Part shown: piece after piece, positions 1,061 through 25,379 of the stretch
Position numbering within the stretch: position 1 is the stretch's first letter
How the letters are laid out: each line of letters begins with the position of its first letter
Assembly (NCBI RefSeq): GCF_036588685.1
Contig: NC_086375.1
Coordinates: 44,020,001 to 44,084,000 of the forward strand
Origin: Mytilus trossulus
Taxonomy: Eukaryota
Direction: 5' to 3'
Length of the DNA stretch: 64,000 bases
Notes under the pieces: model-generated
Told to the model about the DNA's origin: nothing
What the model saw: the letters and a program-made list of their open reading frames with translations, nothing else
Databases searched by the model: none
Position numbers and translations under genes: made by a program

Positions 1061-3349
1061 AGCTTTAGTCACGCTGAAGATGATACTGAAAGTTTAGAAT
1101 TAAAAGAGAAAAATACAGAAACTCCTAGCCAGAAAAAAGATCCAAATAAACTGGAAAATTATAATGATTTCCGATGTAAGTGTAAAAAAAAACCGTTGTC
1201 TCATATAAGAGTGAGACGAGAAGGTGACTACTTTCATCATTTCGTGGTGTTGGCAATTACTGAAGTATCTGATGGGATAGATGCTGTAACCATCGGACAA
1301 TGCACAGGCTCGGCTAAAAATGGGATTGAGAATTGTAATGGCGACTGTAAATTTGTACAGCATATGTTTTTGATGGAAGAAATCGACAAACAAACACTTA
1401 AACATGCTATTTTAAACTTTACGCAGGGTGTATACTTAGTTAAACAGGAGAACTACCGAAGTACAAGAAAAGACATTGAGAAAGCTTCTAATCGTCTCAG
1501 CGAGAAGATAGGCGAGGGAAAGTATGATGTATCATCAAATAATTGTGAGCATGCAATTAGTTATATTTTAACCAGAAAGAGTGTCAGTGATCAAAAGGAA
1601 AATCATCTAATCAAACTAGAAAATTATGATGATTTTCGACGTAAGTGTAAACCGTTGTCTCATATACAAGTAGAACGAGAAGGTGGCTACTTACACCATT
1701 TCGTGGTGTTGGCAATTTCTGAAGTATCTGATTGGATAGATGCTGTAACCATCGGACAATGCACAGGCTCGTCTAAAACTGGGATTGAGAATTGTAATGG
1801 CGACTGTAAATTTGTACAGCAGACGTTTTTGATGGACGAAATCAAAAAACAAACACTTAAACATGCTATTTTAAACTTTGAGCAGGATGTATTCTTAGTT
1901 AAAAAGGAGAACTATCCAAGTACAGGAAAAGAAATTGCAGAAGCTTCTAATCGTCTCATCGAGAGAATTGGTGAGAGAAAGTATGATATATCATCAAATA
2001 ATTGTGAGCATGCAATTAGATATATTTTAAATGGTCTAGTTAAACTGGAAAATTATGATGATTTCAGACGTAAGTGTAAGTGTAAACCGATGTCTCATTT
2101 ACAAGTGAAACGAAAAGGTGGCTACTTCCACCATTTCGTGGTGTCGTCAATCTCTGAAGTAGATAATGCTATAGATGCTGTCACCATCGGAGAATACACA
2201 AGCTCGGGTGAAATTGGGATGGAAAGTTGTGATGGCATCGGTAAATTTATACAGCAGACGGTCTTTATCGGAGAAAAAGTTACACACAAAAATTTCGACT
2301 TTGTTGAGGGTTTGTATCTAGTTACGAATAAAAACTATCCAAGTGGAGAAAAATTTGAGGAAGCTTTTAATCGTCTAAACAGTAGAATTGGTGAGAGAAA
2401 GTACGAATTATTATCAAACAATTGTGAGCATGTAATTAACCATATTTTTACCGGAGAGAGCGTCAGTGATCAAACAGACGCAGACTCCATCACTTTCTCG
2501 AGGAAATGTTTTAATGATATGTTCAACATTTTGATAATAGATTGTAAAGAAGTAGGATTCAAAACTGCTTTATTAGTAGCTGCCCTTGGTGCAGTTGCTG
2601 GTTCGTTGGTGCGTCGAGCTTATGTAAGGGTAATTATTGCAGCTATTGTCAGCCTTACCGTGGAAAGTAGCATCCTTAAATGCGGAGACAAAAGGGGAAG
2701 TAATTTACGCAAAGAAGCGGATATCAGAATAGACTTGGCTTCTTATTTGCCCGATATCAATGGTGCTTTAAAAAACACAAGTATCGCTATCCTTGAAGAC
2801 GTGAAGAATCACACTGATACAAATTTTGTTTGTAAAATTGCAGAGAAACTTATCTATGAAGCAGCTATGACGACGTGTTTGGCGACTGTTGCTTTCGCCA
2901 CAGGAATAGAAACTATTGTATTTTTGTCTTTCGTATTTAACAATTTAATTTCAAGGAGACGAAATAAAACTTTGGAAGCTAAATATCTATGTCGGATGTT
3001 GTTCCTGCAACTATTTGCAGGATATGGCTCTATAGGAATTGCTGTAGTTTGTGGATATTTCGCATTTTTAGACTTTAATCGTCCTGCATTGTCTTTCTTT
3101 GGAATTGTATTTGGCTGTTGTATTGTATTTCGATATATATTGACTTGTATTGCAGGGATGATTTTTTCCGTCTGCTTTCATAAGTGTTGCTGGGACTGTT
3201 ATAAATCAAGCTGTTGTAAATGTTACGAGGCCAGTTGTCAATGTAGATGCTATAAATGTTATTTCAGCACCGTTTGTTTTATTTTTCTATCTTCAGTAAT
3301 TTTTCTAGTTGGTGCATTTTTAGTTATTATTGTTTTCTGGGATGATTAG
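1061..3349 (+). CDS. LRAT/PLAAT-like (permuted NlpC/P60) membrane protein, copy 1: three tandem catalytic domains + multi-TM Cys-rich tail (large coding exon; first exon lies upstream of window)
   Basis: Acceptor ttttgtag ends at 1060 and the frame is open from 1061 (phase 0) into the 1196..3349 ORF. Three repeats of KLENYxDFR..SH...YxHHFVV...VTIG[Q/Q/E]...RIGERKY...NNCEH (NCEH near 1540, 2000, 2420), followed by about 6 hydrophobic segments and CCWDCYKSSCCKCYEASCQCRCYKC. Confidence 0.85.
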   Translation, partial: SFSHAEDDTESLELKEKNTETPSQKKDPNKLENYNDFRCKCKKKPLSHIRVRREGDYFHHFVVLAITEVSDGIDAVTIGQCTGSAKNGIENCNGDCKFVQHMFLMEEIDKQTLKHAILNFTQGVYLVKQENYRSTRKDIEKASNRLSEKIGEGKYDVSSNNCEHAISYILTRKSVSDQKENHLIKLENYDDFRRKCKPLSHIQVEREGGYLHHFVVLAISEVSDWIDAVTIGQCTGSSKTGIENCNGDCKFVQQTFLMDEIKKQTLKHAILNFEQDVFLVKKENYPSTGKEIAEASNRLIERIGERKYDISSNNCEHAIRYILNGLVKLENYDDFRRKCKCKPMSHLQVKRKGGYFHHFVVSSISEVDNAIDAVTIGEYTSSGEIGMESCDGIGKFIQQTVFIGEKVTHKNFDFVEGLYLVTNKNYPSGEKFEEAFNRLNSRIGERKYELLSNNCEHVINHIFTGESVSDQTDADSITFSRKCFNDMFNILIIDCKEVGFKTALLVAALGAVAGSLVRRAYVRVIIAAIVSLTVESSILKCGDKRGSNLRKEADIRIDLASYLPDINGALKNTSIAILEDVKNHTDTNFVCKIAEKLIYEAAMTTCLATVAFATGIETIVFLSFVFNNLISRRRNKTLEAKYLCRMLFLQLFAGYGSIGIAVVCGYFAFLDFNRPALSFFGIVFGCCIVFRYILTCIAGMIFSVCFHKCCWDCYKSSCCKCYEASCQCRCYKCYFSTVCFIFLSSVIFLVGAFLVIIVFWDD

Positions 3350-4914
3350 TAAAACTGAACAACGGGCTTAGGTCGCTATATGAGGTTTGAAGAAAGGAAG
3401 AGCGATAGGGGTCCAACCTTTTAGGACATAAGCATTGTATTTTAAAAAAAAAAAGATTATTTTGAAATAGATCTTATCAGAATTATTTGAATACAAATAC
3501 ATTTACTGTAAATAATTTTAGGCTTTTGCGTTAGCTAAAACTCGGCTGAATTATTAATCCCTTTTCAATTGATAAAAATATATCTGCAAGTATAGAACCC
3601 GGTAACATTAGACACATAGAAGTAGAATTAATATCTTATAAAAGATCTCCTGTAGTTGGTGATCGAAATACTGGGCTTATGACTTGGAGTGTGTTTGTTT
3701 GAAACCACCTGAATGTTATGTGTTTTATGTCTAAACAATGAAATCCTTGTGGTGAGTAATATGCAACATATTGATTTGTTTTGCAGGAAATTTAACAATT
3801 TGTATAGCGTGTGGTGCTCACTTTCACCGTAATTTCCATGTTTTCTGCAGTTTATGGTCAGGTCTTTATGTTGGGTTTTTTAAGTATACTGATATAACTA
3901 TATGAAGCTAACATCAATAACAAAACTTTTTAGCTTGAAAACGTGTTTCTTTGAAAAAAATCATCTGAAAAATTAGAGTAAAGACTGTTTGAATTTTCCT
4001 GATGTCTTGTCAAAGGGGGATACATATGACATGATAAAACAAACTTGTATATCTGGTTAACAAAAAAAGACATGGAAGTTAAATTAAAATGTGAGCATAC
4101 CAAACATTTAATGAATTTCATAATACTCATTAACTTCTTGAATGATAAACTATTAAACAAATGTTTGTAAAATTTCTAAATTGTATATTATATTGCTGTT
4201 TATATCATTCCTTGCTTTTGTCTCTAAGTGTGTGTAATCTAGATAAAAATGTTCTCTGAAAGTGTTTTTGTTCAACGAGTGCCGAAAAAAGTAAAATAAC
4301 AAAAATACTGAATTGTTAGGAAAATTCAAAACGGAAAGTCAATACTCAAACGGCATGGAAAATATTTATCATATTCCTGACTTAGTACATATATTTCCTT
4401 CTGTAGAAAACAATGAATTAAACCTCTTTTTATAGCTAGCTAGCTAAATCTCTCACTTAGTATTGTATGATAGTGACATATAATTGTATAATATGGACAA
4501 CAAAAGATGGACAAAAGATACCAGAGGGACATTCATTGCATGAGCAAAACAAACAGACGTTATAGAGTGAAAATTGGAGTACAGCAGTTTACACTGTGCT
4601 TTAACCTTAATCTCTATAAAAACAAATAACATTAAAACAAAATTGCATATAGACAATCAATGGGCAAAGTTCATAGGCAAAATGTACGACAGGATTACAA
4701 ACTTGAGCATAGCACAATAAAACAATTGCAAAGTGTATGAATACAACAAATTACCTCAAAAGGATTTAACAGTCAAAATTAAAAATATACAAATACAATA
4801 AACATGACCATGACTATAGCACCTAAGTAAGATGATATATAACGACAGTACCTAGAATCTATACTCCAAGACCATTTCATACGATTTCATAAGTCCATTC
4901 AGTTACAATACTAA

Positions 4915-5220
4915 TATTGAGTTCACACGTAATTCGAATTCGTTCGCATTAACTAATTCGAATTAGTTTAATTCGCATTCGAAACGTTTAAAGTCCTAGC
5001 GTAAATTCTAATTCGAATTGGAATGCGCGTCAAATTCGCTTTACTGTCCTAACGACGTTAGCTTTTAATTCGAATTAACAAAAACGTATTTCTAATGCAA
5101 ATTGGATAATTCGAATTAGCTATTGCGAATCAATTCGAATTAAAAAAGAAGAGTGTGTGAACGCGATTAGCGAATTCGATTCGAATTCAATTCTAATTAA
5201 ACGTACGTGTGAACGAGGCA
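4915..5220. mobile_element. PIF/Harbinger-like MITE (306 bp) with internal aattcgaatt palindromes
   Basis: Imperfect 15-bp TIRs (tattgagttcacacg / cgtgtgaacgaggca) and TAA on both sides. The paralogous site in the duplicate (~13850) is empty, with a single TAA. Confidence 0.8.
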
Positions 5221-7542
5221 TAAATTACATATTTGCCATCGAGTGCGAATATGTCTATTTAAAAAACATAAATTGGAAAAAAACGATCGAACCAAGTTTG
5301 TTTTCACATTCCACAAAAATTGACCCCTATCAATACCAAAGTTTCTATAGTAAATAATATGCGAATAATATTTAATTTCTGATTATTTAAAGGATTGTCT
5401 GGTTCTTTTTAAATTTTAATTGGCATTTAAATCGTTGAAAGAAACAAATTTTGTATGAAGCATGGAAGCTCTTTACAAAGTGAATGCTTGCCTTTAACAA
5501 ATATATAAAGGTACATTTAGTTCTTACTTTACATGTCTTTGCTATTACCTTGGCGTTAAATGAAGTTTTTTTTGTATGCTGCCTAGGCGTTGTTGAAATT
5601 TTGTCATGGAGAAATAATTCATTTTATTGAAAAATTACGTAATATTTGAATGCACTGTAATGGTTGTCTGGCAGTCAAGTTATGATTCTGATGAAACATC
5701 CTTGTGATCCTTTTTTGTTTGTTTTTAATTTGTTTTAATATATATACATTGTAGGCTTCCTTAAAAAATGATTTATTTGTGTTATAAAATGTGACCTAAC
5801 ACAACTTCGATTATTTTTTAAAGAAATCATGAAAGTAAGTGATTTTCAAAAAGGTAGTTTGCTCATTGTTTAAGGCCTTACAGTGACTGATCCTTACCCT
5901 TAAAGCCTAGTGTGATGATAGGTAAATTTTTTAAAATCTTTTTTAGAATTTGAATTTTACACATATACTAGTAGACAAAAATGACTTGCCTAGTGAAATA
6001 GAAAATGTGTGCTTTATTGGACATTCAAATTCAAGGTTGCCTATAACCATGAGTTCTACGAAAATGGTATGTAAGGAATAATATTGAATCCACACATGTG
6101 AATTTAACTTTTCTTATGTTTATAGGTATAAGAAGATGTGGTATGAGTGCCAATGAGACAATTCTCCACCAAAGTCACAATATATAAAAGTAAACCATTA
6201 TAGGTCAAAGTACGGTCTTCATTGCTACATTGTACTTCAATATGTAAATTAAAACTAAATATGTACTATTCTTCCATCCAAACAATGTGATAAACGGTTA
6301 AGGAATATGTAAAGGGAACAATAGAGTTTGTAATGTATTAGTAGAACTGGGTGACAGAAAATTTAACACACAAATAGTCATTCATTTCATCATTGAAATG
6401 TGAGATAATTATACAAAAAAACAAATGTTTTCTGTACATTATATGTAAACCATGATTTGTTATATGTTCATGGTGAAATTCATAAACACAATAAAAATGT
6501 CTGAAATAAAATATATTTGGAGTATTTTTAACTAAAAAAATAAATAGCAGAAAAATCATTTCATGCATACATAACTAGAAATAGAACATAAAAATGGAAT
6601 AAGATTAAACACGTTACAGTGTGTTGAAAATTATGGAAGATATGTACACCTCAGCTTGTAATGGAGGGTTATGCTTATCATTTGTTAAAGGCTGTGGTTT
6701 TGTGTCAGATTGATTATATATATTAAAATATAAAACCTACCGATTTCATGTTTTTTTTATGTGTTTTGCCTTCAAATACTACTGTTTTGTTGTTTGTTCA
6801 AAACAACTGGTACTAGCAGCTAAATTTTCTGTTTTATCTGGAATTAAAAACTGAAAATTTTAAAAAAGAAATGGATTTTTTATTGTATTCAGTTGTTCAT
6901 TCGAAAGTAGTACCTGAACATCGCATACCTAGCAAGTAATTAAACCGTTAACATGATCACTTTCATTTTTTTTAATTAAGGTGCGCGTTCATCTGACAAG
7001 GTTGTTGATATTGAGGTGTATGTACTATAAGACCCGCCTACGTCCACTCTGTTTTTGTTTGATGAATTACTATTTATATCCATCTGACGAGTTGAGCCTT
7101 TTTCAACTGGTTTTTATACATATTTTTCTAAGACGACGAGTTACTCCGATAGATCTGGATTTTAATCAGAACGATGGCAGACAGTAAAACCACGACGTTT
7201 TATAATGCGGTAAGTTGTTTAGTAAATCTATTAGTAAGTGTTTTTAAATAAAGAACAAACAATTACGGAATGTTTTCCTTACATTTTAAATTGCGAAAAT
7301 GTTTTATTATAAAGAAAATCTTTCGTTTCTAGTGTTTGGTTTTGTTGTATTACCAAATACTCCTGCCATACAGAGACTACTATAACACAGTGTTATAGTA
7401 CACAGTGTTATAGTAGTCTCATTGCCATACGATCAAAGTTGACTACACATACATATATAGAGTCTATAAGAATCTACCAACCTGTAAACTTAATAGGTAT
7501 TGGATCATCAAAATTGACAATACTACACAAACAGGAAAAATG

Positions 7543-7696
7543 ATATGAGTCTAAAAGATTGTGTAACAATACCGATAAATAGATGGAAAACAAAACACTA
7601 AAAAGTGTTGAATATCATCTTTGATATTCAACACTTTTTAGTGTTTTGTTTTCCATCTATTTATCGGTATTGTTACACAATCTTTTAGACTCATAT
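7543..7696. repeat. Perfect 75-bp-arm inverted repeat (hairpin) with 4-nt loop, adjacent to (TA)n
   Basis: 7543-7617 is the exact reverse complement of 7622-7696. Confidence 0.9.
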
Positions 7697-9213
7697 ATAT
7701 ATATATATATTTAGACGAGTTGTATATATATATACTATATACATGTATACGAGTCTACGAGTCTAAATTGAAAACTACGTTCAAACCTATGATTGCGTTG
7801 GATAAAAAAGCAATTTTTTTACGTGTGCATGTAAAACAAATTTCGTTGTAGAAGGGTCTAAATACAGCACAAACAACATTTTCCAAAAGACCAAAAAAGT
7901 GAGAAAGTATATTTAAACAAAACGCATTTGACTAACAGGTCGAACAACTGATGTTCTTAAACCCTGCTGACTGCCATTGGCGATTGCCAAATAAAATTGA
8001 TCACGAGATGTAACAAAATGGATCTTAATATAATTTAATACTAAACAGAAAACGATAAACTTGTGGTCAAGATGTTATGCCACAAACACAAGGTGTCAAT
8101 ATTTTTTTTGTACACCACTATATATATATAAATATTATATATATTTATTTATTAATTATGGAATTTTGGTTATATGGTCAAAACGTTATATGTGAAACTT
8201 TTCGTATTATATCGACCCAGGACAAAATCCGACGTGCAATATTATACAGTTACTGTCTTTTGATGAGGTAAATGTGTGGTTTTATTGACTTTTGAAAAAC
8301 TGATATTCACTGAGGCAAACGGCAAAAGTCAATTAAACCACATATTTACCGAAGCAAAAGACAGTAAATGTTTTATTCCATATTCCGAAAGAAATGAATG
8401 TAATGGAAAATATTTACCAAAACTAATTGTACATCAAACGTTTTTTTATCAAAATTATACAAGTAAAAGCACGCGACGTTTTGCGCGGTGAATATCCTTT
8501 TTCTGCAGGTGAATATGCTTATTTATTCAAGATCCAATTCATATAGAAAAACCTACTAATATTTTATCAATATGGAATAATATTCATTTATTTCCCGTGT
8601 CTGAGGGAGATATGAAGATTTGTTCACCCAAGACAAATCTTATTTCACGAGGGCTTTGCCCGAGGAAAATATGATTTTTCGAGGGTTAACAAATCTTCAT
8701 ATCTCCCAAAGCTACGGAGAATGAATGTTTTATTCCACTGCCTTTATATTTTTTTTTACTTCTTGACATAAGCTATTGATTTACATGATTCAGTTTTCAG
8801 AATTCTTATCCGTTTTTTTTTTTTATTACTTAACACATCGTCAACATACACAATACTACTCATTACTGATTAAACATTAATTATTTGTTCTCTTCTGTTT
8901 GTTTTTATATCTTTAAAAACATAATTACTAGTCTATCTCTAAAAAAATTCGTTCAAAACGTTTTAAAACATTAACCGCGGGTAAAAAAAAGCCAATCCCG
9001 ACGTTCAGAGGGGAATATGAAGTTTTGTTCGAAATCACGTGGGATAGTTTCAACCAATCAAATGTTGATTTCGCTATCAAAATCAGCATGCAGTGGAATA
9101 AAATCTAACAGGCCCATATATAATGTATTTACTGAGTGAAATGCCTAAATTTATATATCACACATGTACAAGTGTAAGTTCGAACATGGTATCGATTCGA
9201 TGCTATTATATTC

Positions 9214-9500
9214 GGAAATGATATTGACTCGCTGTTACTATATTTGGAAATGATATTGACCCGATGTCACTATTTTTGGAAATGATATTAAGCCGATGTT
9301 ACTAATTTTGGAAATGATATTGACTCGATGTTACTATATTTGGAAATGATATTGACCCGATGTCACTATTTTTGGAAATGATGTTGACTCGATGTTACTA
9401 TTTTTGGAAATGATATTGACTGCATGTTACTATTTTTGGGAATGATTTTGACTCGATCTTACTATTATTGGAAATGATATTGACTCGATGTAATTATTTT
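9214..9500 (+). repeat. 32-bp minisatellite, ~9 copies
   Basis: Unit ggaaatgatattgactcgatgttactatattt recurs at 9214, 9246, 9278, 9310, 9342 and onward. Confidence 0.9.
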
Positions 9501-12500
9501 AAGTAACATGGAGTCTATATCATTTCTAAAAGTATTTATAGTAACGTCGAGTCAATATGTCAAAATAGTGAGAGAGAGAGAAATACAAAATATATCTTGG
9601 AAAACACGAGTCTAAATAAACCAATGAGAAACAAGAAAAATAAAACCATATGTAATATATTTGACATGACATGTAAATCATAATAAAAGTAATACAAAAC
9701 ATGTGTAGTGCAGTGGTGTATCTAGAAATTTTCATAAGTGGGGGCCCACTGGCTGCCTAAGCAGGGGCCCGCTCCCGTCACGCTTCAGTGATTCCCTATA
9801 TAACCAACCAATTTTCTTTCTTAAAAGCCCCCCCCCCCCCCCCCCCTAAATCCGCCTCTGTAGTCAGAAAATATTTTACATAATCCTGGTACCTTTGATA
9901 ACTATTTACATACTTTGGAATATTATGGTAATTGAAATAAAGCTATTTCAAGCTAAAACAAAACAAAAGATGTAGATTGATGAACCCACGATGCATTTTT
10001 TAACATCCTATATGGGTGTTTCTCGTTGTTAACTCATGCAGTTGTTTACATGTCTGTCCTTTGTTTACGGTTAAACGTTTCGACATCGGCAGTTATATAT
10101 ATATTATTAGACACCAGAATTCCCCATTTTTCGACATTTGCCTATCATTTCTTTTTATATTCATAAGGTATTTGAAGGCAAGATTGGAATTTTAACACTC
10201 ATCAAAATTCAAGTGATAATTTCGTTTTTTAATTTTGTAGATCTGTTCTCAAGTTGAAGATGACACTATCGAACTGAAAAATTATGATGATTTCCGATGT
10301 AAGTGTAAACCGTTGTCTCATATAAAAGTGGAACTAAAACGAGAAAGTGGCGACTTCCACCATTTCGTGGTGTTTGCCATCGCTGAAGTATCAGACGGGA
10401 TAGACGCTGTCACCATTGGACACTACACACATCCGGCTGAAATTGGGATGGAGAGTTGGGAAATATCGCTAAATTTGTACAGCACACTTTCTTGATATAA
10501 AGGAAAATGACAAACATACACGTATACATGTTATTTTAGACTTTGAACAGGGTGTGTACTTAGTTAAACATGAGAACTGTCTAAGTACAACAAAATAAAT
10601 TGAAGAAGCTTTTAATCGTCTTAGCGAGAGAATTGGGTAGAATGATATATTGACAGACAATTGTGAGCATGCAATAAGCTGTATGTTAACCAGAAAGAAT
10701 ATCAGGGCTCAAGAGGTAAATACCGAAAATTCTAGCCAAGAAGAAGATAAAAATAAACTTAAAAATTATGATGATTTCCGACTTCAGTGAAAACCGTTGT
10801 GTCATATAAAAGTGAAACGAAAAAGTGCCTGTCGTAATTATTATCATCATTTCGTGGTGTTGGCAATCTCTAAAGAAACTAACGGGATAGACGCTGTCAC
10901 CATCGGACAATACACAATCTCGCCTGTAATCGCGTTGGCAACTTGTGAAGGCATCGGTAAATTTGTACAGCAGACGTTCTTTATGGCAGTAAAGGACAAA
11001 GATACAGAAACAAACGACAAAGATACACGTACACATGCTATTTTAGACTTTAAGAACGGTGTATTCTTCGTTAACCCGGAGAAACATCCAAATCAAACGT
11101 GCGAAATCGAGAAAGCTTTTAATCGTCTCAGCGAGAGAATTGGAGAGAGAAAGTATGATTTAATATCGAACAATTGTGAACATGTTATTAACCAAATATT
11201 AACCGGAAAAAGTGTCAGCAATCAAATAGACTCTGAAACTGGCTGCAATACATGTTTTGAAGATTCTGGCAGTCATCAAACAGACTCTAAAGCTGGCTCC
11301 TATACATGTTTTAATGATTTGTTCAACAGTTTTAAAATAGACTATAAACAGGTAGGGCTTAAAACAGCTTTGTTAGTAGCTGCCCTCGGTGCCAATGCTG
11401 TTTCGTTGGTGCGTAGAGCTTATGTAAGTAATTATTGGTGCTATTGTTAGCCTTACCGTCGAAAGTAGCATTATCAAATGTGGGGACAAAAGGGGAAGTA
11501 ATTTACGCAACGAAGCGAGCATCAGAATAGACTTAGCTGCTCATTTGCCCGATATCAATGATGCTTTTAAAAACACAAGTATTGCTATCCTTGACGACAT
11601 GAAGAATCACACTGATACGAATTTTGTTTGTAAGATTGCAGAGAAACTTATTTATGAAGCAGCATTGACGACGTGTTTGGTAACTATTGCTACGCTACAG
11701 GAATAGAAACTATATTATTCTTGTCTTTTGTATTTAACAATCTAATTCCAAGGAGACGGAAGAAAACATTGGACGATGAACAGCTATGTCGGATGTTGTT
11801 CAACTTTTTGCAGGATATGGCTCTATAGGAATTGCTGCAGTTTGTGGATATTTCGCATTTTTAGACTTTAATCGTCCTGCGTTATCTTTCTTTGGAATTG
11901 TATTTGGCTGTTGTATTGTTTTTCGATATATATTGACTTGTATTGCAGGGATGATTTTTAACGTCTGCTGTTGTGATGGCTGCTGGAACTGTTATAAATC
12001 AAGCTGTTGTAAATGTTACAAAGCCAGTTGTCAGTATGAATGCTATAAATGTTATTTCAGCACCATTTGTTTTATTTTTCTATCTTCAGTAATTTTTCTA
12101 GTTGGTGCATGTTTAGTTGTTATTGTTTTCTGGGATGAATAGTAAAGCTGAACAACGGGTTTAGGTCGCTATGTGAGGGCTGAAGAAAGGAAGAGCGATA
12201 GGGGTTTAACGTTTTAGAACATAAGCATTGTATTTAAAAAAAGAACGATTATTTTGAAATAGAACTTATCAGAATTATTTGAATACAATACATTTACTGT
12301 AAATAATTTTAGGCTTTTGCGTTAGCTCAAACTCGTCTGACATATTAATCCCTTTTCAATTGATAAAAAGATATCTGCAAGTATAGGACCCGGAAACATT
12401 AGACACATAGAAGTAAAATTAATATCTTATAAAAGATCTCCTGTAGTTGCTGATCGCAATACTGGGCTTATGACTTGGAGTGTGTTTGGTTGAAACCACC

Positions 12501-12521
12501 TTAATGTTATGTGTTTTATGT

Positions 12522-12712
12522 TTTTATCCCAGGCATAGATAACCTTAGCCGTATTTGGCACAACTTTTTGGACTTTTGGATCCTCAATGCTCTTCAACTT
12601 TTTACTTGTTTGGCTTTATAAATATTTTGATATGAGCGTCACTGCTGAGTCTTATGTAGACGAAACGCGCGTCTGGCGTACTAAATTATAATCCTGGTAC
12701 CTTTGATAACTG
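12522..12712 (+). mobile_element. 5'-truncated hammerhead-ribozyme-bearing retro-element insertion (Penelope-like/retrozyme type)
   Basis: 191-bp insert flanked by TTATGT duplication (12516-12521 / 12713-12718), absent at the paralogous site near 3725. Contains an HHR motif at 12634-12680 with core CTGCTGA (A-to-C change). Confidence 0.8.
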
Positions 12713-14732
12713 TTATGTCTAAAATAATGAAATCCTTGTGATAAGTAATATGCAACATATTGATTGGTTTTGCAGGAAATTAAACAATGTGTATAGCTTG
12801 TGGTGCTCACTTTCGCCGTAATTTCCATGTTTTCTGTAGTTTATGGTCAGGTCTTTATGTTGGTATTTTTAAGTATACTGATATAACTATATGAAGCTAA
12901 CATCAATAGCAAATATTTTTTAGCTTGAAAACGTGTTTCTTTGAAAAAAATCATCTGAAAAATTAGAGTAAAGACTGTTTGAAATTTCCTGATGTCTTGT
13001 CAAAGGGGGATACATATGACATGATCAAACAAACTTGTTTATCTGGTTGTCTTTTTTTGTTAAATTGAAATGTGAGCATTTCAAATATTTAATGAATTTC
13101 ATAATACTCATTAACTTCTTGTATGAAAAACTATTAAACAAATGTTAGTAGAATTTCTAAATTGTATATATTGCTGTGTATATCATTCCTTGCTTTTAAG
13201 TGTGTGTAATCTAGATAAAAATGTTCTCTGAAAGTGTTTTTGTTCAATGAGTGCCGAAAAAAGTAAAATAACAAAAAATACTGAATTCTAAGGAAAATTC
13301 AAAACGAAAAGTCAATATTAAAACTGCTTGGAAAATATCTATCATATTCCTGACTTAGTACATATATTTCCTTCTGTAGAAAACAATGAATTAAACCTCT
13401 TTTTATAGCTAGATAAATCTCTCACTTAGTATTGTATGATAGTGACATATAATTGTATCATATGGACAACAAAAGATGGACAAAAGATACCAGAGGAACA
13501 TTCATTGCGTGAGCAAAACAAACAGACGTTATAGATATTTAAAAAAAAGAGTAAAATTGGAGTACAGCAGTTAACACCATGCTTTAATCTAAATCTCTAT
13601 AAAACAAATAAAATTGAAACACAATTGCATATAGACAATCAATGGGCAAAATTCATAGGCAAAATGTAAGACAGGAGTATAAACAAATTACCTAAAAAGG
13701 ATTTAACAGGTCAAAATTAAAAATATACAAATACAATAAACATGACCATGACTATAACACCTAAGTAAGCTGATAAACAACGGCAGTACCTATAATCTAT
13801 ACTCCAAGATCATTTCATACGATTTCAAAAGTCCATTCAGTTACAATTCTAAATTACATATTTTCCATCGAGTACGAATATGTTTATTTTAAAAACATAA
13901 ATTGAAAAAAAAAATCGAACCAAGAATGTTTTCACATTCCACAATAACTGGCCCCTATCAATACTAAAGTTTCTACAGTAAGTAATATGCGAATAATATT
14001 TAATTTTTGATTATTTAAAGGATTGTCTGGTTCTTTTTTAATTCTAATTAGCATTTAAATCGTTGAAAGAAACAAATTTTGTATGAAGCATGGAAGCTCT
14101 TTACACAGAGAATGCGTGTCCTTTGACAAATACATAAAGGTACATTAAAGGAACATTCAATTCTTATTTTACACGTCCTTGCTATTACCTTGGCGTTAGA
14201 TTTTAGTTATTTGTATGCTGCCGAGGCGTTGTTGAAATCTTGTCATGAAGAAATAATGCATTTTATTGAAAAATTACGTAATATTTAAATGCATTGAATT
14301 TGTGATGGTTGTCTGGCAGTCAAGTTATGATTCTGATGAAGCATCCTTGTGATCTTATTTTTCGGTTTTCAAAATATGTTAATATACTTACAAAGTAGGT
14401 TTCCTAAAAAAAAAGATTTATTTGTGTACTAAATTATTGCCTAACACAACTTCGATTATTTTTTTAAGAAATTATGAAAGTAAATGATTTTCAAAAAGGT
14501 AGTTTGCTCATTGTTTAAGGCCTTACAGTAACTGATCCTTATCTGCAACTACCCCTATAGTTTAAACTAAAAGCAGTTTAGTTCAGTCTTAATTATTTTA
14601 TTACTGTGGATTAATTTATTTTCTTGGATACAAATGTTCGATGATTGAGGAAAAATTGTAATAGCATGGCAATTTGATTTCGTGGCCAAGTTAAGCATAA
14701 TAGTTATCAAAGGTACCAGGATTATTATTTAG

Positions 14733-14780
14733 TACGCCAGACGCGCGTTTCGTCTACATAAAGACTCATCAGTGACGCTC
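14733..14780 (-). ncRNA. Minimal type-I hammerhead ribozyme, intact core (within element 14700-14790)
   Basis: Minus strand: gagcgtca CTGATGA gtct-ttatgt-agac GAAA c-gcgc-g TC tggcgta. Stem I gcgtca/tggcgt, stem II gtct/agac, very short palindromic stem III, GUC cleavage triplet. Confidence 0.8.
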
Positions 14781-16198
14781 ATATCAAAATCCATAGATTG
14801 CATAAGCCAATAGAAAATGTGTGCTGTAATGGACATTCAAATTCAAGGTTGTCCATAGCCATGAATTCCACGAAAATGGGTATCCTAGGAATAATATTGA
14901 ATCCAAACAATGTGTATTTAACATTTCTTATGTTTATAGATATAAGAGATGTGGTATGAGTGTCAATGATACAACTCTCTTTTCAAGTCACAATATATAA
15001 GAGTAAACTATTATAGTTCAAAGTACGGTCTTCATTGCTACATCGTACTTCAATATGTTAAAAACCAAATACATAACTATAATTTCATCCAAACAATGTG
15101 ATAAACGGTTCAGGAATATTTAAAGGGAACAGTAGATTTTGTAACGTATTTGTAGTACTGTGTAACAGAAGATTTAACACACAAAAAGTCTATTCATTTC
15201 ATCATTGAAATGTGAGATAATTTTACAATAACCAAATGGTTTCTGAACTATTATATATGTAAACCATGATTTGTTATATGTTCATGGTAAAAGTCATAAG
15301 CCAGAATAAAATGTGTAAAATAAAATAAATTGGGAGCATTTTAACTACAAATATTCCTTTATCTAAATAAATAGCAGAAAATCATTTCCGACATACCATA
15401 TGATTACTAGAAATCGAATAAGATATAACACGTTTCGTTGTGTTAGAACTTTTGGAAGATATTTATGCATCTACATGTACTCATGGAGGGGTTCATAAAG
15501 GCAACAGTAGTATAACGCTGTCCGAAAGTCATAAATGGATTGAGAGAAAACAAATCCTTAACATGTATGCTTAATATTTGTTATAGGCTTTGGTTTTGTG
15601 TCAGCTTTTAAATTATATACTATATACATTTGTAGCTATAAAATATAAAACAGATACCGATTTCATGTTTTAAATGTGTTTTTCTTTCGTTTTGTTGTTT
15701 TTCAACACATATAGTACAAGTAGTTAAACTTTCTAATCTGGAATTAAAAACTGAAAATAAAAAAAAGAAATGGATTTTTTTGTATTCAGTTGTTCTTTCC
15801 AAATTAATACCTGGACATCTTATACATATCAAGTAATGAAACCGTCAACATGATCACTTAAAAACAATTTAAGTAAGGTGCGCGTTCATCTAACAAGGTT
15901 GTTGATGTTGAGGTGGAATGCTACACGACCCGCCTACGTCCACTCTGTGTGTTTGTTTTATGAATTACTATTTATATCCATCTGACGAGTTAAGCCTTTT
16001 TCAACTGATTTTTATAGTTTGTTCTTATGTTGAACTGAGTCTGTTACACCACTGTCCCATGTTAGGGGAGGATTGATGCCTTCAACTGAACTTAATAACT
16101 TCGTCACATTCTGCATGTGCATGCCTGTCTCAAGTCAGGAGTCTGTAATTCAGTAGTTGTCGTTTGTTGCTGTGTAACATAATTGTTGTTCGTTCATT

Positions 16199-16527
16199 TT
16201 TTTATGTCTCATTTATGGTCATTATGTTTTCTGGTCTGTGCGTCCATCTGTTCGTTCATTCGTCTGTTCTTCCATTCGATCGTCTGTTCTTCCGTTCATT
16301 ATTCCGTCAGGCTGTCCCGCTTCAGGTTAAATTTTTTGTTTTGGTTGAGGTAATTTTTGATGAAGTTGAAGTCCGATCTACTTGAAACTAAGTACACATG
16401 TTCCCTACGACATGCTCTTTCTAATTGTAATGCCAAATTAGAGATTTTTCCACATTTTCACGGTCCATTGAACATAGAAAATAATAGTGCGGATGGGGTA
16501 CCCGTGTACTTTGGACACATTCTTGTT
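16199..16527 (+). mobile_element. Helentron/HINE-like non-autonomous element (related copies 33930-34072, 36380-36795, 51871-52150 on minus strand)
   Basis: ttttatg start, tccg/ttcg-type microsatellite, conserved body gaagttgaagtcc...acttgaaact, 3' end cattcttgtt; several dispersed copies. Confidence 0.6.
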
Positions 16528-17012
16528 ATTAATTAATTAGGCCGTTAGTTTTTAGATTGAATTGTTTATACTTTTCATGTTATGGCATTTTTAAGCCGAC
16601 AATAGGGTAATTGGTTTTCTCATTGTTGAAGGCCGTACGGTTGCATATAATTGCTTACATCCTCTACACTGAACGTCGTCTTATTTCCATTAAAAAATCA
16701 TAAAAGATATAGACGTGAATACAAGAGCATGTAAAAAGAAACAACACAAAGAACAAACGAAGCAACGCATAAAAAAGAAACATAGAAACAAACCCAACAA
16801 TCAAGATTTATAAAAAGAGATTCTACCATATTATCCAAAGTTCATTATAAGCTATGGTAGTTATGGACTTCTGAAATTATTCATATAAACAATTTTTATA
16901 CTAGTATCATACAATGTAAACATATTTTTATTTGGTCGGGTTGTTGTCTCTTTGACACATTCCCCATTTCCATTTTCAATTTTATTGTTAAAAGAATCTA
17001 TGAATCTTGATG

Positions 17013-17300
17013 AAAAGTAAAATCTCAAATATACTGAACTCCGAGGAAAATTCAAAAAGGAAAGTCTCTAATCAAATGGCAAAATCAAAAGCTCATACAC
17101 ATCAAACAGATGGATAACAACTGCCATATTCCTGACTTGGTACAGGCATTTTCTCATGTAGAAAATGGTGGATTGAACCTAGTTTTATAGGTAGATAAAC
17201 CTCTAAATTGTATGACAGTCGCATACAACTCATTATATTGACAAAGATGCGTGAACAAAACAAAAAGACACACTGTCAAAATTAGGGAACAGCAGTCAAT
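17013..17300 (+). repeat. Abundant dispersed repeat (aaaagtaaaa...atactgaactccgaggaaaattcaaa...), also at 4285-4560, 13258-13530, 20570-20910(-), 25095-25235
   Basis: Recognisably homologous blocks at several positions in both orientations. Confidence 0.7.
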
Positions 17301-18559
17301 ACTAGTATTGTAATGTCTTCGTAATCACTATGAAAAAAAAACAATGTAACAAAGCATTAGTCATTAAGAACATTTGCGTCAACATAGTTACATCGATACT
17401 TTTGGTACCTTCCCTAACCTGGGACAGTAGTGTAACAATACAACATAATCACAAACTATAAAAAGCAGTTAAAAAGGTTTAACTCATCAGATTGGTACAT
17501 AGAAAACAACAAAAACACATATATTCGATATGTAAATAAAAAGATCACAGAATCAATAGTGAACCAGGTTCAGATTTTTGCGATTGTGCTTATGTTTCGA
17601 TAATTTGTTTTAGAGGAAAAGTATCGAAACATGTCAGGGCTCGCCGTCGCGAAAAAACGTATCTAGTTCGGTGATACTTTACACGAATTGTTTTGACGAG
17701 GTTGTGTCGGCCTACATAGATTTATGTACTGTGGTCGTGAACTTAGAGAAAATGTTAAGTTACGTTGAATTACATCTTGCTAGTCATCACCGGAAGTTAT
17801 TTGAATCGTCTGTCGAGTGCGAATGTCCTGTTTTATTCTTACATAACTAAGTGAAATGTAACTTTGTTGTTTTGTATATTCATCGATAATGATTTACAAG
17901 AAAGTGCACATATCTGCATGCAGTAAATTATTTCGTGATTTGTTTTTATAATCAATGATTTGAAATCCAAGAATAATGTCTTTTTATTAGCAATCTGACT
18001 TTTTTTTTTGTGTGTGTGTAAAAACAATTTAAAATATGCCTGACTTTAAAATTAAAGACTTTTTATCAAACTGGTAGAAATACTGCATATTGTACTTAGA
18101 ATAGTTGTGACATAACTAGTAATACAATACAAAATAGCTCCTTTTTTGGAGTATTACATTTTGAATTCATAAGATATAACTATTAATTGATGCATTTTCT
18201 TATGTTTTAACGGAGGGTTTCGTTATTTTTTCCATCATAATCTATTACAGTTTTTATCTTTGATAAATCTGGCTGCAACCCATGTTCCTGAAAAAGTGTG
18301 TCTATATATATATATATATAAGTAAATATTTTAGTTACTGAACAATTTGGATCGTAGATGTCGGTCAAGATTTTCTTGGAGCTTTGAGATATAGAAATTC
18401 ACTGAATCGTTTAGTTTTGACAACATCTAGAAAATGTGCTGACATTGGAGCCTATACTCTTTTGAAAATTAGCGTTGAAATAGATCCATTGAAGAACTAT
18501 AATTTGATAGAGTGATACAGGAGAAAACACAGCTCATCAAAATAAAAATTGGTTAGTAT

Positions 18560-18715
18560 AGGATTAAACACATTTTTTCTAGAGGTTATTGATGTGTAAA
18601 CCGGGTCTATAACTCACAAACTTGACATAAAAGTCCTTCGGACTTTTATTCAGTTTGTGAGTTAATCGCCCCGGTTTACACATCAATAACCTCTAGAAAA
18701 AATGTGTTTAATCCT
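18560..18715. repeat. Long near-perfect hairpin (MITE-like); same class at 48866-49021 and 55420-55597
   Basis: aggattaaacacattttttctagagg... / ...cctctagaaaaaatgtgtttaatcct with central aaaagtcc-ttc-ggactttt. Confidence 0.8.
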
Positions 18716-19712
18716 TATAATTCTTCAGCCAAACATACACGATTACTAATTTACATTTTTACTTTAATGGCTACTATATGTACCATCAGAAACAAAATGG
18801 CATGTCGTAACTAAGGAGTACGCCGCCATCTTGACCTTCTAAAGAAACTTAAATGTGCGATAAACGCAACAGAATCTAAAATGAAATAGCACCTACCTCA
18901 AAAACTTCATTTTAATTAGATACTACCCGAATATGAAGCGTACAAGTAACGAACTAATCTTCCGTCTGAAAGTTTTCAATCGTATGACGTCGTGTTTTGC
19001 CATGACGTAAATTCGCCAAATCATACGTGAAATTTCCCGGAATTTTATTTAAATTTTATTTTTATACATTTTCGAAGCTTTATTGCATTTTTTTTTTGGG
19101 GGGGGGGGGGGTATATATGCATTAGAATAGAAACAACTGTTATGCAATTGTTTTATAATCTCAACTTGCTGAAAATCCCAATATCCCTGCAAGAATGTGT
19201 ATCGAGCATGAATAGATTACGAAAGTAGTTTCGGAAATATGGTTTATCGAAGTGTAAACCAAGAGAAAAATTCTAATTGACCAATCCAATTCAAGTATTT
19301 ATAGATATGCATATGATATAAGAATTATTCCAATATAATTAAACTTTGTGATTGTCTCATTTTTGAGTTTTTTGAGGTTTTTTTTAGAGAAGACAGAAGA
19401 TTTATAATGGGCATATATGACATTTATATCCCACCACGCATCAAATACTACGGACAAAACCGACTGCAGATTAACGAAATTGTCACTATTAGATATGTTT
19501 TCTGCCTAAAAATGCACACCTTCATATAATATGTAATACTTGAATACTTGAATATTCTTATACAGTCCTTCAATATCGTATTTGGACAATCCATCATAAA
19601 TAATATTACATAGTTATATATCTGATCATTTCATATCCTTGTGGTAAATACGTGCACTTGAACCATAACATTAATTCAATAGTATTTGTGTTTCAACAAC
19701 TAAAAGTTTGTG

Positions 19713-22700
19713 ATGGCGGATAATAGGTTGTCTGATACAACACCCGTAAGTTTATATGATTTAATTTTTTACTAACATTTTAGAAAACGATATTTTTATT
19801 CAGTACAAAGCGAGAATGTCCTATGCATCCAATTGTTACCTTGGTTTACTGTTTTGACAATGGCCTCTACGATTCACACATATATTATACATATAAACAT
19901 ACATGTATATACACCTTGTAATGACATGACATGAAAATTTTCATTTAACCTTTGATATATTTAGAAATAAAAAGATGTTGTGTGATTGCCATATAGACAA
20001 CAATTCATACGATAGGGATGACTGTCCGTCCGTCAACAATGATCAACACACACAGAACAGTTATCTCTGAATGTTAGCGGGCTGATATAATGGGAAACAA
20101 TTAGAGAAAATAATCGGACTGATTTATTCTATCATTATAAATACAAACAAATAAGGCAAACAGAAATCAACGACAAAATCGAAATGACATGTTCCTTGGT
20201 TTGGACAGACGCTTAAGGAATGTAGCGGGGGTTAACATGTTTGTAAGGACCGTATCCTCCCCTAACCTTACTTTTAATTTACAATTGTATGGTATTATGC
20301 GTATTGAACGTCATGAATACCTAACACGAATAAGTAATAAAAAACAAACGCGCGATTCTACATCAGAGTTTATGTTAATCTGACCATGTGTATGTCATCA
20401 AGGAAAGGATTCGGTCCCAATACAATCTTTCGACCCATTATGGTTGAATTTTGCATAGATAAATAAAATCGTATAATAGAAAAGCAAAACGAAGTTGCTT
20501 AATTTAATGCATGCCTTTTAGTGCTTCTTTGTTACATTTGTTTGTTTTATAATGATTAAGATGACAACACTATATTGACTGCTGCATGTATCCCTATTTT
20601 TTACATTTTTACATCGGATACTACTGTGTCTGTTAATATTGTTCACGCATCGTTGTCAATATAATGGAATTTGATCCGACTGTCATACTTATAACACAAT
20701 GTTGACTGCTGTAAGTGAGAGGTTTAGTTAGTTATAAAACCATGTTCAATCCACCATTTTCTACATAAGAAAATGCCTGTACCAAGTCAGGAAAATGACA
20801 GTTGGTATTCATTCGTTTGATGTGTTTGAGCGTTTGATTTTGCCATTTAATTAGGGATTTTCCTTTTTGAATTTTCCTCAGAGTTCAGTATTTTTGAGAC
20901 TCGTTTTACTTTATGCTACAATTACTAGAATGAAATGCTGTTGTGTTGTATATTTTCATGATTTTTTTTTACTATTATAACTACGAAACTGTCTACAAAT
21001 ATACTTGAAAAAATATGCCCATGTCATCGCAGTTTATTTAAGTTTACGTTTTTAACTGAATCTGTATAGTACATGATAGTTATCAAATATACCAGGATTA
21101 TAATTAACTACGCCAGACGCGCGTTTGACATAAGACTCATCAGTGACGCTCATAACAAAATATTTATAAAGCCAAACAAGTACAAAGTTGAAGAGCATTG
21201 AGGATCCAAAATTCCAAAAAGTTGTGCCAAATACGGCTAAGGTAATCTATGCCTGGAATAAGAAAATCCTTAGTTTTTCGAAAAATTCAAAGTTTTGTAA
21301 CAGGAAATTTATTAAAATGACCACATATTCATGTCATGAGTTCTATTATAAGACAGCAGCAATCACTCTCCTCGACATTTCCGTTGATATTGAAAATATC
21401 ATTTAAGACAATTTTTTTGAAAATAGAACACTCGCCAAAATGTAGTGTAAAATACGTCTTGTTTATTATTGTAGATTGTTAATCACGATGATAACACAAC
21501 AACGGAAAGTAAAGAAAATATTTGTCAGGGGAAAATTCCAAATCAACTAAGTAGCTACAAGGAGTTTCGAACGAGGGTCAAATTGTTGTCTCATATTAAA
21601 CTTAAACGAACAGGTGGCTACTTCCACCATCTTGTTGTGTTGGCAATCTCTCCGGTATCTGATGGGGTAGATGCGGTCACCATTGGGCATTACACAACAT
21701 CTGCTGAAATAGGGACGGAGAGTAGTCATGGTATTGGAAAATTTATACAGCAGACGATCTTCATTGGAGAAAACGATACAAACGATATTTTTGATTTTAA
21801 ACAGGGTGTGTATTTAGTTGAAAAGGAGAACTATCCAAAGACAAAAGATGAAATTGAGGAAGCTTTTAATCGTCTCAGCGAAAGAATTGGTGAGAGAATG
21901 TATGAGATATCATCAAATAATTGTGAGCATGCAATCAACTTTATTTTGACCGGAAAGAGCGTCAGTCATCAAGCAGACACCAAAACTTGCTCCCGGATTT
22001 GCTTTATTGATTTGATCAATATTTTGATAATAGATTGTAAAGAAGTAGGACTCAAAACAGCTTTGTTAGTAGCTGCCCTCGGTGCCATTGCTGGTGCATT
22101 GGTGCGAAGAGCTTACGTAAAAATAATTGTTGCAGCTATTGTCAGCCTTACCGTTGAAAGTAGTATCATTAAATGTGGTGACACAAGGGGAAGTAATTTA
22201 CGCAAAGAAGCCGATATCAGAATAGATTTGGCTGCGCATGTGCCCGATATAAAACGTGTTCTTAGCAAATCCAGTATTGCTATCCTTGACAACATGAAGA
22301 ATCACACTGATACTACTTTTGTTTGTAACATTGCAGAGAAACTTATCTATGAAGCAGCGTTGAAGGCGAGTTTGGCGACTGTTACTGTCGCTATAGGAAT
22401 TGAATCAATATTATTTTTGTCTTTTGTGTTTTACAATTTAATTCCAAGGCGACGAAAGAAAACATTAGATGACCAGCATCTTTGTCGGCTCCTGTTCATG
22501 CATCTGTTTTCAGGATATGGTTCGATCGGACTTGCTGTAGTTTGCGGATATTTCGCTTTTTTAGACTTAAATCGTCCTGCTTTGTCTTTCTTTGGAATTG
22601 TATTTGGCTGTTGTATCGTTTTTCGATATATATTGACTTGTACTTCCGGTTTGGTATTTAACGTCTGCTGTTGTCATGGTTGCTGGATCTGTTTTCAGTC

Positions 22701-22857
22701 AAGCTGTTGTAAATGTTTCGAGGCTTTTTGTCGTTGTAAATGTTATAGGTGTCATTTAAGTACCTTTTGTTTTATTTGTCTGACTGCATTAATCATTATC
22801 TCTGTTGCTTTACTTTTCATTGTGTTCTGGGACGATCGTTCATATCTTCGGATTTAA
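19713..22857 (+). CDS. LRAT/PLAAT-like copy 3, single catalytic domain + multi-TM Cys-rich tail (exons 19713-19745, 21475-22857; ~471 aa)
   Basis: Exon 1 ATG GCG GAT AAT...CCC|gtaagt (MADNRLSDTTP, phase 0, similar to the copy-2 exon 1). Acceptor ttattgtag at 21474 is in frame with ORF 21583..22857. Intact YFHH / VTIGHYT / NNCEH putative His-His-Cys triad. Confidence 0.85.
21076..21327 (-). mobile_element. HHR-bearing retro-element copy (longest in window) in the intron of LRAT-like copy 3; ribozyme damaged
   Basis: Same 3' end (gataactat) and body as 12522-12712. A small deletion removes the stem II 3' arm and changes GAAA to CAAA. Confidence 0.75.
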
Positions 22858-23129
22858 GTCGTAGAGTGAGTATTAAAGAATGCATGAATTGCCTGAATTA
22901 GAAGGGTTCGCGGTGGGCTTGTATAAACTTTCAACAATCGAAATAAGAACATCTTGTCAGAAAAGATTTATTGAAATTAGAATACTAAGGAAGAACGATA
23001 ATTTTGAAGATTAATTTGATAAAATTATGTGATACAAATACCCTAAATGTAAACAAATCATTCGTCGCCCCGGCTCATGGTTTAATTTTCAAGATCTACG
23101 CTTATTCGTTGTATCTATATTACATTATA

Positions 23130-23386
23130 CACTGTAAAAAATATAGCGGAGTTTAAATGGACATGAACGCCCAATCTCACCGTTGTCTAGGTCAGAAATA
23201 AACAATTAGTACCATTTTAAAGGACCTCGACTCACTAGGAGGGTTGACGATGAAATGAAAAATCATAAAAGCAATGTTTACCCTACTTATACATAATTGT
23301 AATTGTATTTATTGTTTATTTCTGCCCTCGACAACGGTGAGATTGGGCTTCATGACCATTTAAACTCAGCTTTAACTTTTACCGTG
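23130..23386. mobile_element. Foldback MITE with CACTG-type terminus (EnSpm/CACTA-like non-autonomous)
   Basis: cactgtaaaaa...gagtttaaatgg...cccaatctcaccgttgtc / gacaacggtgagattggg...ccatttaaactc...ttttaccgtg inverted arms. Confidence 0.6.
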
Positions 23387-24459: not shown

Positions 24460-25379
24460 GATACTGTTATCTTTCCGAAAAAGCAGAACATATTTGAAAT
24501 TTCAAAAGGACGCTGGGCGTTAAGCAATTTATAAATCATCTCCGTAACCTTTATGCTTGCATAGTTTTATAAGAACAATCTATTTTAATGTAATATATCT
24601 ATTTATCACAATAAAATTTAGAATGGCAGTAGTGAATGTGTCAAAGAAACTACAAAGACCAAAGAGCAGAAAACAGCCGAAGACAACCGATGGGTCTTCA
24701 ACACAAAATTCGGCAGAGTTAAACATATTTTTTGGAGATCTCAACCCACCCTTATACCCTTAGCCAATGTAGAAAAACAGAAATAAGTACAGTAAAACTC
24801 AGTTTGTAAAAAATTCCGAGTCTAATGTCAGAAGAGGTAACACAACAACCTATGCAAAATGGCAATGATACATAAATTAACAAAGGACTACAAGAAGTTA
24901 CTGACATGCCATCTCTAATCCCCAATTATCTTATCCGAGCTTAAGCCTTGACCCAATTTGCCTCATACGATACAGGGATCAAGCTAAGGTAACTGAATAT
25001 AATCCAACTGATAAGTGATATTGCAACGTTAAGCAGGCTGTAACAGGGCTCCTTTTACGATGTGTTTCTGCTATTATAGGTATGCACAAAAAAAAAAGAT
25101 AACAACTGTCATATTCTCATTAAGAAAAATTGTGGATTAAACCTGATTTTATAACTAGCTAACCCGTTCACTTGTAAAGCAGTCGCATAAAATTCCGTTA
25201 AATTGACAACGATTAGTGAACAAAACAAACAGACATATATTTTCACTCAAAAGCCGTTTTTTTAACATCAATTTTGGCACTACCTGACAGACAAAAAAAG
25301 AAATACAAACGACGTGTGCTTCAGAATAACAGAAGAAAGAAGCGTGCAATAGCGTCTTCTTTGAATTCAACTGGAAACC

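Follow-up and report, generated by a model that had tools for sequence, protein, structure and literature searches.

What do three adjacent and related genes of a mussel encode, and why do they carry different numbers of the same catalytic domain? The window studied here, i.e. the whole stretch of DNA analysed, is 64,000 nucleotides of Mytilus trossulus (NCBI RefSeq assembly GCF_036588685.1, contig NC_086375.1, positions 44,020,001 to 44,084,000). It contains three paralogues, A, B and C, head to tail and all on the + strand, which an earlier note on this DNA had described as LRAT/PLAAT-like genes with three, two and one His-box/NCEH domains. All six domains could be mapped. We consider it fairly probable that the A and C proteins are integral membrane, PLAAT-like thiol acyl-hydrolases/transferases on a five-pass anchor, whose domain number has been shifted by unequal recombination.

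The main coding exon of A (1061..3349, 762 amino acids) encodes three LRAT-type domains followed by a membrane anchor, and that of C (21475..22857, 460 amino acids, or 471 including exon 1) encodes one domain and the anchor. Both genes are intact, with zero breaks over 3.7 kb of coding sequence. The main exon of B (10241..12142) contains two LRAT-type domains (10274-10697 and 10764-11210) and the anchor, and is a pseudogene. Each main exon opens at an AG acceptor in phase 0. The earlier placement of the domains within one coding exon is right, but each gene also needs a short upstream coding exon. This exon was found for B (7174..7209, + strand, 12 codons) and for C (19713..19745, + strand, 11 codons), in both cases with a GT donor and phase 0; a search within the window did not find one for A. 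Extra upstream domains, such as a death domain, are ruled out, as exon 1 has only 11-12 codons and the relatives start alike.

The tetrapeptide NCEH is found six times on the + strand, at 1541, 2000 and 2420 in A, at 10659 and 11172 in B and at 21919 in C, and a His box is located upstream of every copy (1235, 1694 and 2129; 10358 and 10845; 21625). The circular permutation, with the His before the Cys of the NCE box, is seen in six of six domains. In A, domain 1 (A-D1, 1157..1579) and domain 2 (A-D2, 1622..2038) are of a distal class and share 90% DNA identity, and domain 3 (A-D3, 2051..2458) is of a membrane-proximal class. The C domain covers 21553..21957. The curated cut-off of Pfam LRAT (PF04970), 24.3 bits, is passed by all four domains of the intact genes, which score 24.8-35.8 bits (A-D1 24.8, A-D2 35.8, A-D3 30.1, C 31.0), and also by the second domain of B (B-D2, 31.2). 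From B-D1 only a 72-residue in-frame piece was tested against Pfam, and it matched no family. In a comparison of a profile of the relatives with PDB sequences, HRASLS2 and PLAAT3 came out on top (E 1.3e-8 and 6.4e-7), in an alignment that spans the C-terminal third only.

The structural models point in the same direction. The C model has a predicted local distance difference test score (pLDDT) of 84.4 and a predicted template modelling score (pTM) of 0.79. For A the values are 76.1 and 0.54; the three copies show the same strand/helix pattern, and their mutual arrangement is not confident. The domains superpose on PLAAT3 and PLAAT4 with a Z-score of about 9: the C domain on PLAAT4 (7zot) with Z 9.1 and a root mean square deviation of 3.2 over 104 residues, and A-D3 on PLAAT3 (7zom) with Z 9.3 and 2.4 over 98 residues. 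Lower scores were obtained for A-D2 against 4q95 (Z 6.5) and for C against the bacterial permuted NlpC/P60 enzyme 3kw0 (Z 7.1). Taken together, the Pfam scores, the profile search and the superpositions uphold the LRAT/PLAAT-type family assigned from the letters.

A Tyr seven residues before the Cys, which may be the fourth active-site residue, is 91% conserved and present in five of the six window domains, B-D1 being the exception. The third triad residue is Gln, Gln and Glu in A, His and Gln in B, and a second His in C. Among 75 aligned relatives it is His, Gln or Glu in 67 (38, 19 and 10), with one Gly and seven gaps, and a polar residue suffices at this position in the superfamily (PMC10102619, PMC3142127). 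The idea that Gln or Glu makes a domain inactive is ruled out by the 29 of 75 relatives that have one or the other. Around the His box all six window domains read HH[F/L]VV, unlike any of the signatures that PMC3184775 gives for LRAT, HRASLS and FAM84. Several families could be rejected: the PPPDE/peptidase C97 deubiquitinases score 12.9-22.5 bits with a cut-off of 29.2; FAM84/LRATD would need an NSE box, with Ser replacing the catalytic Cys, where the window has NCE in six of six; LRAT proper has a HYGIY context that is absent from the window domains; and orthology to PLAAT does not fit a His-box context that differs from the HW[A/G][L/I][V/Y]Y-type HRASLS signature. By their sequences, the window proteins are members of the LRAT-like family and not PLAATs. 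By analogy, the A and C proteins probably work like PLAATs.

What holds these domains at the membrane is less familiar. The anchor of A (2537..3346, + strand) is predicted to consist of five passes, a two-Cys cap, a basic loop and a Cys string. In C, on the same strand, predicted pass 1 (22045..22104, residues 191-210) lies inside a long helix (172-226) and is followed by a predicted lumenal cap (22153..22344, residues 227-290) with Cys234, Cys284 and N-glycosylation sequons, by predicted passes 2-4 with a basic cytosolic loop (22345..22650), and by the Cys string and a final hydrophobic helix (22651..22836; residues 393-430, at low model confidence, and 431-454). The long helices of the C model are 172-226, 281-327, 333-364, 368-399 and 425-459. 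The shared anchor with its Cys string had been noticed earlier and stands; the roughly six hydrophobic helices counted then are better taken for five passes through the membrane, as the first and second hydrophobic stretches form one continuous helix in the C model.

The anchor statistics refer to 25 relatives below 60% mutual identity, i.e. gene C and 24 sequences taken from 43 full-anchor alignment rows. Each of the two cap cysteines is conserved in 23 of the 25, and the cap holds sequons in 24. Sequons are enriched in the cap (38 of 162 Asn) both over the catalytic domain and linker (33 of 253, p=0.007) and over the two predicted cytosolic loops (4 of 66, p=0.001). The loop following pass 2 is basic, with 22.7% Lys/Arg and 6.1% Asp/Glu. 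The cap cysteines, the sequon enrichment and the basic loop fit a five-pass arrangement in which the enzyme and the Cys string face the cytosol and the cap faces the lumen, and from sequence and model an anchor of this kind, with a disulfide/glycan cap, is most likely. The Cys string is variable, with at least 8 Cys per 30 residues in 22 of the 43 full-length relatives and 1-3 in five of them; judged by its position alone it is probably palmitoylated.

The anchor matched no Pfam family (best E 0.02, below the cut-off) and gave no usable match among the Atlas clusters. Structurally it resembled generic helical bundles only, such as dynamin stalks, ATP synthase subunit a and parts of G-protein-coupled receptors (Z at most 9.4), in a comparison made within whole-protein models, so the lack of a clear match does not imply a new fold. 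Among 69 other LRAT-like proteins of at least 250 amino acids, 15 have a glycine-zipper-like tail that the anchor profile matches, compared with none of 69 reversed controls, and the anchor therefore looks like an elaboration of such a tail. On this sequence match, it is the distal half of the anchor, including passes 2-4 of C, that is related to the tail. The N-terminal half is present in 59 of 174 collected proteins, down to about 20% identity; as far as sequence comparison goes, the polytopic architecture is not special to the M. trossulus locus. Four LRAT-like relatives (P0113, P0118, P0150 and P0154) have kept the catalytic domain, and mostly also the glycine-zipper-like tail, with hundreds of residues of repetitive or low-complexity spacer in between.

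Are all three members of the series working genes? The domain counts of 3, 2 and 1 are correct, but B is not functional, and the description of all three as enzymes fails at this point. Its main exon contains three in-frame stops (10596, 10638 and 10788) and five frameshifts (near 10463, 10497, 11427, 11692 and 11799). Protein-coding capacity in the window is limited to the three-domain A and the one-domain C, and the functional series is 3 and 1. The B anchor still shows purifying selection against that of A, with a ratio of nonsynonymous to synonymous substitution rates (dN/dS) of 0.23 (0.14-0.37), and for this reason B has probably died only recently. Both B domains group in the distal class in a maximum-likelihood tree, so B seems to have lost its membrane-proximal domain. 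An extra 18-codon segment just past the last domain of B (about 11223-11280) resembles the adjoining linker.

We regard it as very improbable that errors of assembly or sequencing account for the domain repeats or for the breaks in B. Two of the five frameshifts do sit in short base runs or a dinucleotide repeat. However, the lesions include three nonsense substitutions and a 4-base deletion, whereas A and C are unbroken, which rules out sequencing errors as their source. The repeat units are 73-90% identical in DNA and, with a divergence of 10-27%, are no assembly echo. Further, an M. edulis protein has orthologous first, second and third domains (91, 87 and 87% identity). The artefact explanation is thus largely refuted already.

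How did the domain number change? A stretch of about 5.5 kb, covering gene and 3' flank, is common to A and B (1610..7118, copied as about 10268-16016 on the + strand, 79-87% identity in pieces), and the two therefore arose by segmental duplication. C is older, because its anchor DNA is 82% identical to those of both A and B, compared with 89.5% between A and B. Gene C has 97% identity across 82% of its length to an M. galloprovincialis protein, and the closest named relatives of the window genes are all Mytilus proteins; a further search brought up no named match from outside the genus. A domain census was made of A, C and 174 database proteins, the latter including the best 150 of 164 matches of one search. 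Among these 176 proteins, 150 have one domain, seven have two or three, and 19 have none by the threshold used. The seven multi-domain forms are all from Mytilus and form one clade; apart from A they come from M. coruscus, M. galloprovincialis, M. edulis (two) and M. californianus (two). No form with four or more domains was found among 21 matches of 419-1334 amino acids. The 16 domains of the multi-domain proteins form one branch beside the C type (FastTree, few columns, support 91), and a maximum-likelihood tree of 25 domains splits the distal class (12 rows, 98/94) from the membrane-proximal domains. Judging from these trees, the multi-domain form has a single origin among the sequences examined.

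The database protein P0003 is a candidate product of later exchange. Its first domain is 87% identical to B-D1 and its anchor 96% identical to A and 84% to B; the sequence is B-like through the first domain and linker, and then continues with an A-type proximal domain and anchor. This join of a B-type 5' half to an A-type 3' half points to unequal crossing-over. In seven of the ten repeat pairs compared, the first quarter was the most similar part. The single multi-domain branch, the B/A-type P0003 and the distal and proximal classes support the domain-number evolution proposed in the earlier note. The birth-and-death that it also proposed is borne out by the pseudogene in the array, the 5.5 kb duplication and an excess of LRAT-like entries among dispensable mussel genes, described below. 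Two 'isoforms' of one M. californianus locus, P0006 and P0025, share an N-terminus and differ in their domain pairs, which represents either alternative splicing at the level of domains or a merger of two genes in tandem.

Whether the extra domains matter to the organism is a separate question. In eight distal domains, which come from the window and from three named species of Mytilus, three sites around the strand-3/4 loop are occupied by Cys; two of these Cys, seen in A-D1 as a Tyr-to-Cys and Gly-to-Cys pair, replace residues that are conserved in the family at 82% and 80%. The gain in eight domains is one evolutionary event, not eight. In PLAAT, the strand-3/4 loop tunes activity (PMC10102619). 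Within A, the pairwise dN/dS values of the domains are 0.91, 0.75 and 0.79, with intervals that span 1 (A-D1 against A-D2: 0.91, 0.45-1.93); against the C domain they are 0.40-0.49, and the anchor has 0.29, i.e. the catalytic domains diverge faster than the anchor. None of 17 pairwise intervals lies above 1, and positive selection was not detected. The claim that the extra domains are adaptive finds no backing in values of 0.75-0.91 with intervals spanning 1. From sequence and model, they are probably folded and catalytically competent but loosely constrained.

Loose constraint raises the possibility of a near-neutral by-product, in which only the membrane-proximal domain matters and the distal copies are passengers, persisting because a frameshift there would destroy the downstream enzyme. 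This we take seriously, while leaning against it. The high ratio between A-D1 and A-D2 agrees with it, and their changes do not spare family-conserved columns (5 of 28, against 25 of 105 others, p=0.62). One distal domain, in P0025, has Asn at the presumed catalytic His, a single domain suffices in 150 of the 176 sequences, and the pTM of A suggests no fixed domain packing. However, all 12 distal-class domains retain an unbroken NCEH, the new cysteines occur in every one of the eight domains compared, and these eight taken together do spare the conserved columns (21 of 28 invariant, compared with 53 among the 109 remaining columns, p=0.018), a result that weakens to p=0.27 with two more domains. 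As the distal rows are related, these counts overstate the case against passengers. At the opposite extreme, the multi-domain genes could be a selected innovation, with several active sites, distal domains re-specialised by the Cys pair clamping the specificity loop, an anchor derived from a glycine-zipper insertion tail, and alleles of different domain number that segregate in mussel populations as an infection-inducible membrane attack; the clamped loop would then respond to redox state or metals, or act as a decoy for inhibitors from pathogens. We judge this proposal improbable.

Returning to the membrane-bound PLAAT-like enzyme, a mechanism can be proposed by analogy with the family. A cytosolic permuted NlpC/P60 domain with a Cys-His-(His/Gln/Glu) triad would remove an acyl chain from a membrane phospholipid, bind it as a thioester and hand it to water or to another lipid; this acyl-thioester chemistry on phospholipids is inferred from the family. 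The five-pass anchor would replace the lone tail helix of PLAAT, placing a disulfide-bonded, glycosylated cap in the lumen and a Cys string in the cytosol. Because of this anchor, with its lumenal cap and Cys string, the enzyme probably resides permanently in a membrane of the secretory pathway or of the surface. The catalytic domain would have been duplicated once inside its exon, in Mytilus. Unequal recombination would then have altered the domain number and produced chimeric genes and dead copies such as B, since the repeat, at about 430-490 bp, contains no intron and occurs in genes that lie in tandem.

The acyl acceptor could also be of another kind, either a dietary lipophilic alcohol (retinol, a sterol, a carotenoid or an algal toxin) or a protein cysteine, possibly in the protein's own Cys string. 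Mussels esterify algal toxins, a bundle of membrane helices might provide a site for the acceptor, and it is in the activity-tuning loop that cysteines were gained by the distal domains. LRAT itself esterifies retinol, and retinyl esters are stored in a gastropod (PMC3320870). We nevertheless hold such an acceptor to be unlikely: the window domains do not have the LRAT His-box signature, the Cys string varies among relatives, and the esterifying activities known from mussels are acyl-CoA-dependent. An HRASLS-like activity has also been argued to be ancestral in invertebrate members (PMC3184775).

Several observations weigh against the membrane-bound PLAAT-like enzyme. The top structural match to the catalytic domain is not a PLAAT but chain E7 of 8iuf, a subunit of Euglena complex I (Z 11.4 and 10.3). 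The fold can thus also serve in a role that we cannot describe as enzymatic, and the match suggests that an LRAT-like fold was recruited into this respiratory complex. The PLAAT Z-scores are only modestly above the library background, and Foldseek returned no match at E<=0.001 for either model among PDB and viral structures. The triad residues were set by motif position, alignment and predicted strand, without atomic superposition. The predicted C model gives no membrane position, and the sequon and Cys counts come from related sequences that are not phylogenetically independent. On the genetic side, P0003 is known as a protein sequence only and could be an assembly chimera, and the database gene models are automated, with P0002, P0004, P0005, P0006, P0024 and P0025 truncated or mis-joined.

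Could the family serve in defence? A role in immunity, as suggested in the earlier note, is plausible. The stronger version, in which infection induces the family, its members attack membranes that are damaged or enclose pathogens, and the gene turnover is the mark of an arms race, is compatible with the PLAAT-like enzyme, and we hold it only tentatively. The M. galloprovincialis genome has 54 LRAT-like entries, and its dispensable set exceeds expectation by 13.9 (false discovery rate 0.0073; PMC7653742, Table S52). The same table lists LRAT-like together with IRG GTPases, Mab-21, C1q and BIR domains, but also non-immune domains, and its figure refers to all 54 entries, not to the A/B/C locus. 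In Aplysia, an HRASLS3-like gene belongs to a co-expression module with RIG-I, MPEG1 and PARP14, although its membership in the polytopic subfamily is not established (PMC8195618). PLAAT4, downstream of IRF1, restricts viruses and parasites (PMC10102619). The faster divergence of the catalytic domains than of the anchor also fits, but no dN/dS interval indicates positive selection. LRAT and HRASLS terms are absent from the available parts of the supplements of three mussel or bivalve papers (PMC7773633, PMC8382680, PMC10514466). Matches to the interferon-stimulated response element consensus numbered 0 in the window with 1.22 expected, a weak test since the promoters were not located.

Compared with known systems, a close parallel is the vertebrate PLAAT1-5/HRASLS group (PLA2G16, RARRES3), which shares with the window genes the permuted NlpC/P60 domain, the His box before NCEH, the polar third residue and a hydrophobic helix right after the domain. 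The identity in structural alignments is 13-19%, the HRASLS group has its own signature where the window genes have HH[F/L]VV, and PLAAT has one catalytic domain and one tail helix, in contrast to the 1-3 domains of the window genes and their anchor, in which about 280 residues include five long helices. Vertebrate LRAT falls in the same Pfam family and has the same His/Cys pair, but differs in its HYGIY context. The LRAT-like proteins with a glycine-zipper tail have a catalytic domain close to those of the window, and it is their tail that the anchor profile matches; they have one domain, and membrane pass 1, the cap with its two cysteines, the Cys string and the final helix are all missing. 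Atlas clusters of these proteins are commonest in Echinodermata, Mollusca and Cnidaria, to be taken as leads only at scores of 0.77-0.84. Viral relatives are distant: picornavirus H-box/NC 2A proteins and giant-virus LRAT proteins have the same fold (Aichivirus 2A, Z 6.4), and the viral matches are weak (best E 0.0013). There is no sign that this intron-containing locus came from a virus.

Clustered duplication as in the mussel locus is known from amphioxus, where 12 LRAT-like genes lie on three scaffolds (PMC3184775), and gene turnover like that in the window is tabulated for M. galloprovincialis (PMC7653742). Such expansions and turnover are already known in invertebrates; the available portions of both accounts make no mention of multi-domain forms or a polytopic anchor. 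In the open-access literature we found no paper on tandem LRAT domains or a polytopic Cys-string anchor, and this form of a known enzyme family is apparently undescribed so far. The characterised LRAT/PLAAT enzymes in the literature consulted combine a single catalytic domain with a short hydrophobic anchor; as the mussel subfamily shows, a polytopic and probably glycosylated anchor can carry the domain, which can also be multiplied in tandem. Genes C and A form a natural pair for asking if extra domains boost activity, shift specificity or do nothing, and the locus illustrates clearly how genes arise, die and are shuffled in the mussel pan-genome. Its significance would be greater if induction by infection were true, because the literature consulted offers nothing on the function of LRAT-like expansions in invertebrates.

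The window also contains other genes and repeats. Directly downstream of C there is a single open reading frame (ORF) for a BTB/POZ-BACK protein (25365-26336, + strand; Pfam BTB E 1e-21). A 552-residue ORF (40528-42186, + strand) begins with about 90 residues that look death-fold/CARD-like by eye, an impression only, and continues with a helical repeat-like region; it had no significant match among Pfam or PDB sequences. A basic ORF of 520 residues on the - strand (27794-29356) shows few structure-like features and no significant Pfam match. The 3' flank of B carries a dispersed repeat (12518-12718) that is absent at the corresponding place in A and recurs inverted in the C intron (21071-21267), as well as at 14696, 43583, 48298 and 53666. 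The B intron contains an inverted repeat (7543-7696) with 75-nucleotide arms that are 100% complementary, and further long inverted repeats lie at 18560-18715, 23129-23387 and 46110-46931; all four are typical of foldback elements or of elements like miniature inverted-repeat transposable elements. Minisatellites are located at 9186-9500 (period 32), 32414-33404 (about 20-30), 52177-52679 (71) and 63486-63940 (159). The guanine plus cytosine content per kb across the window is 23-47%, mostly about 30%.

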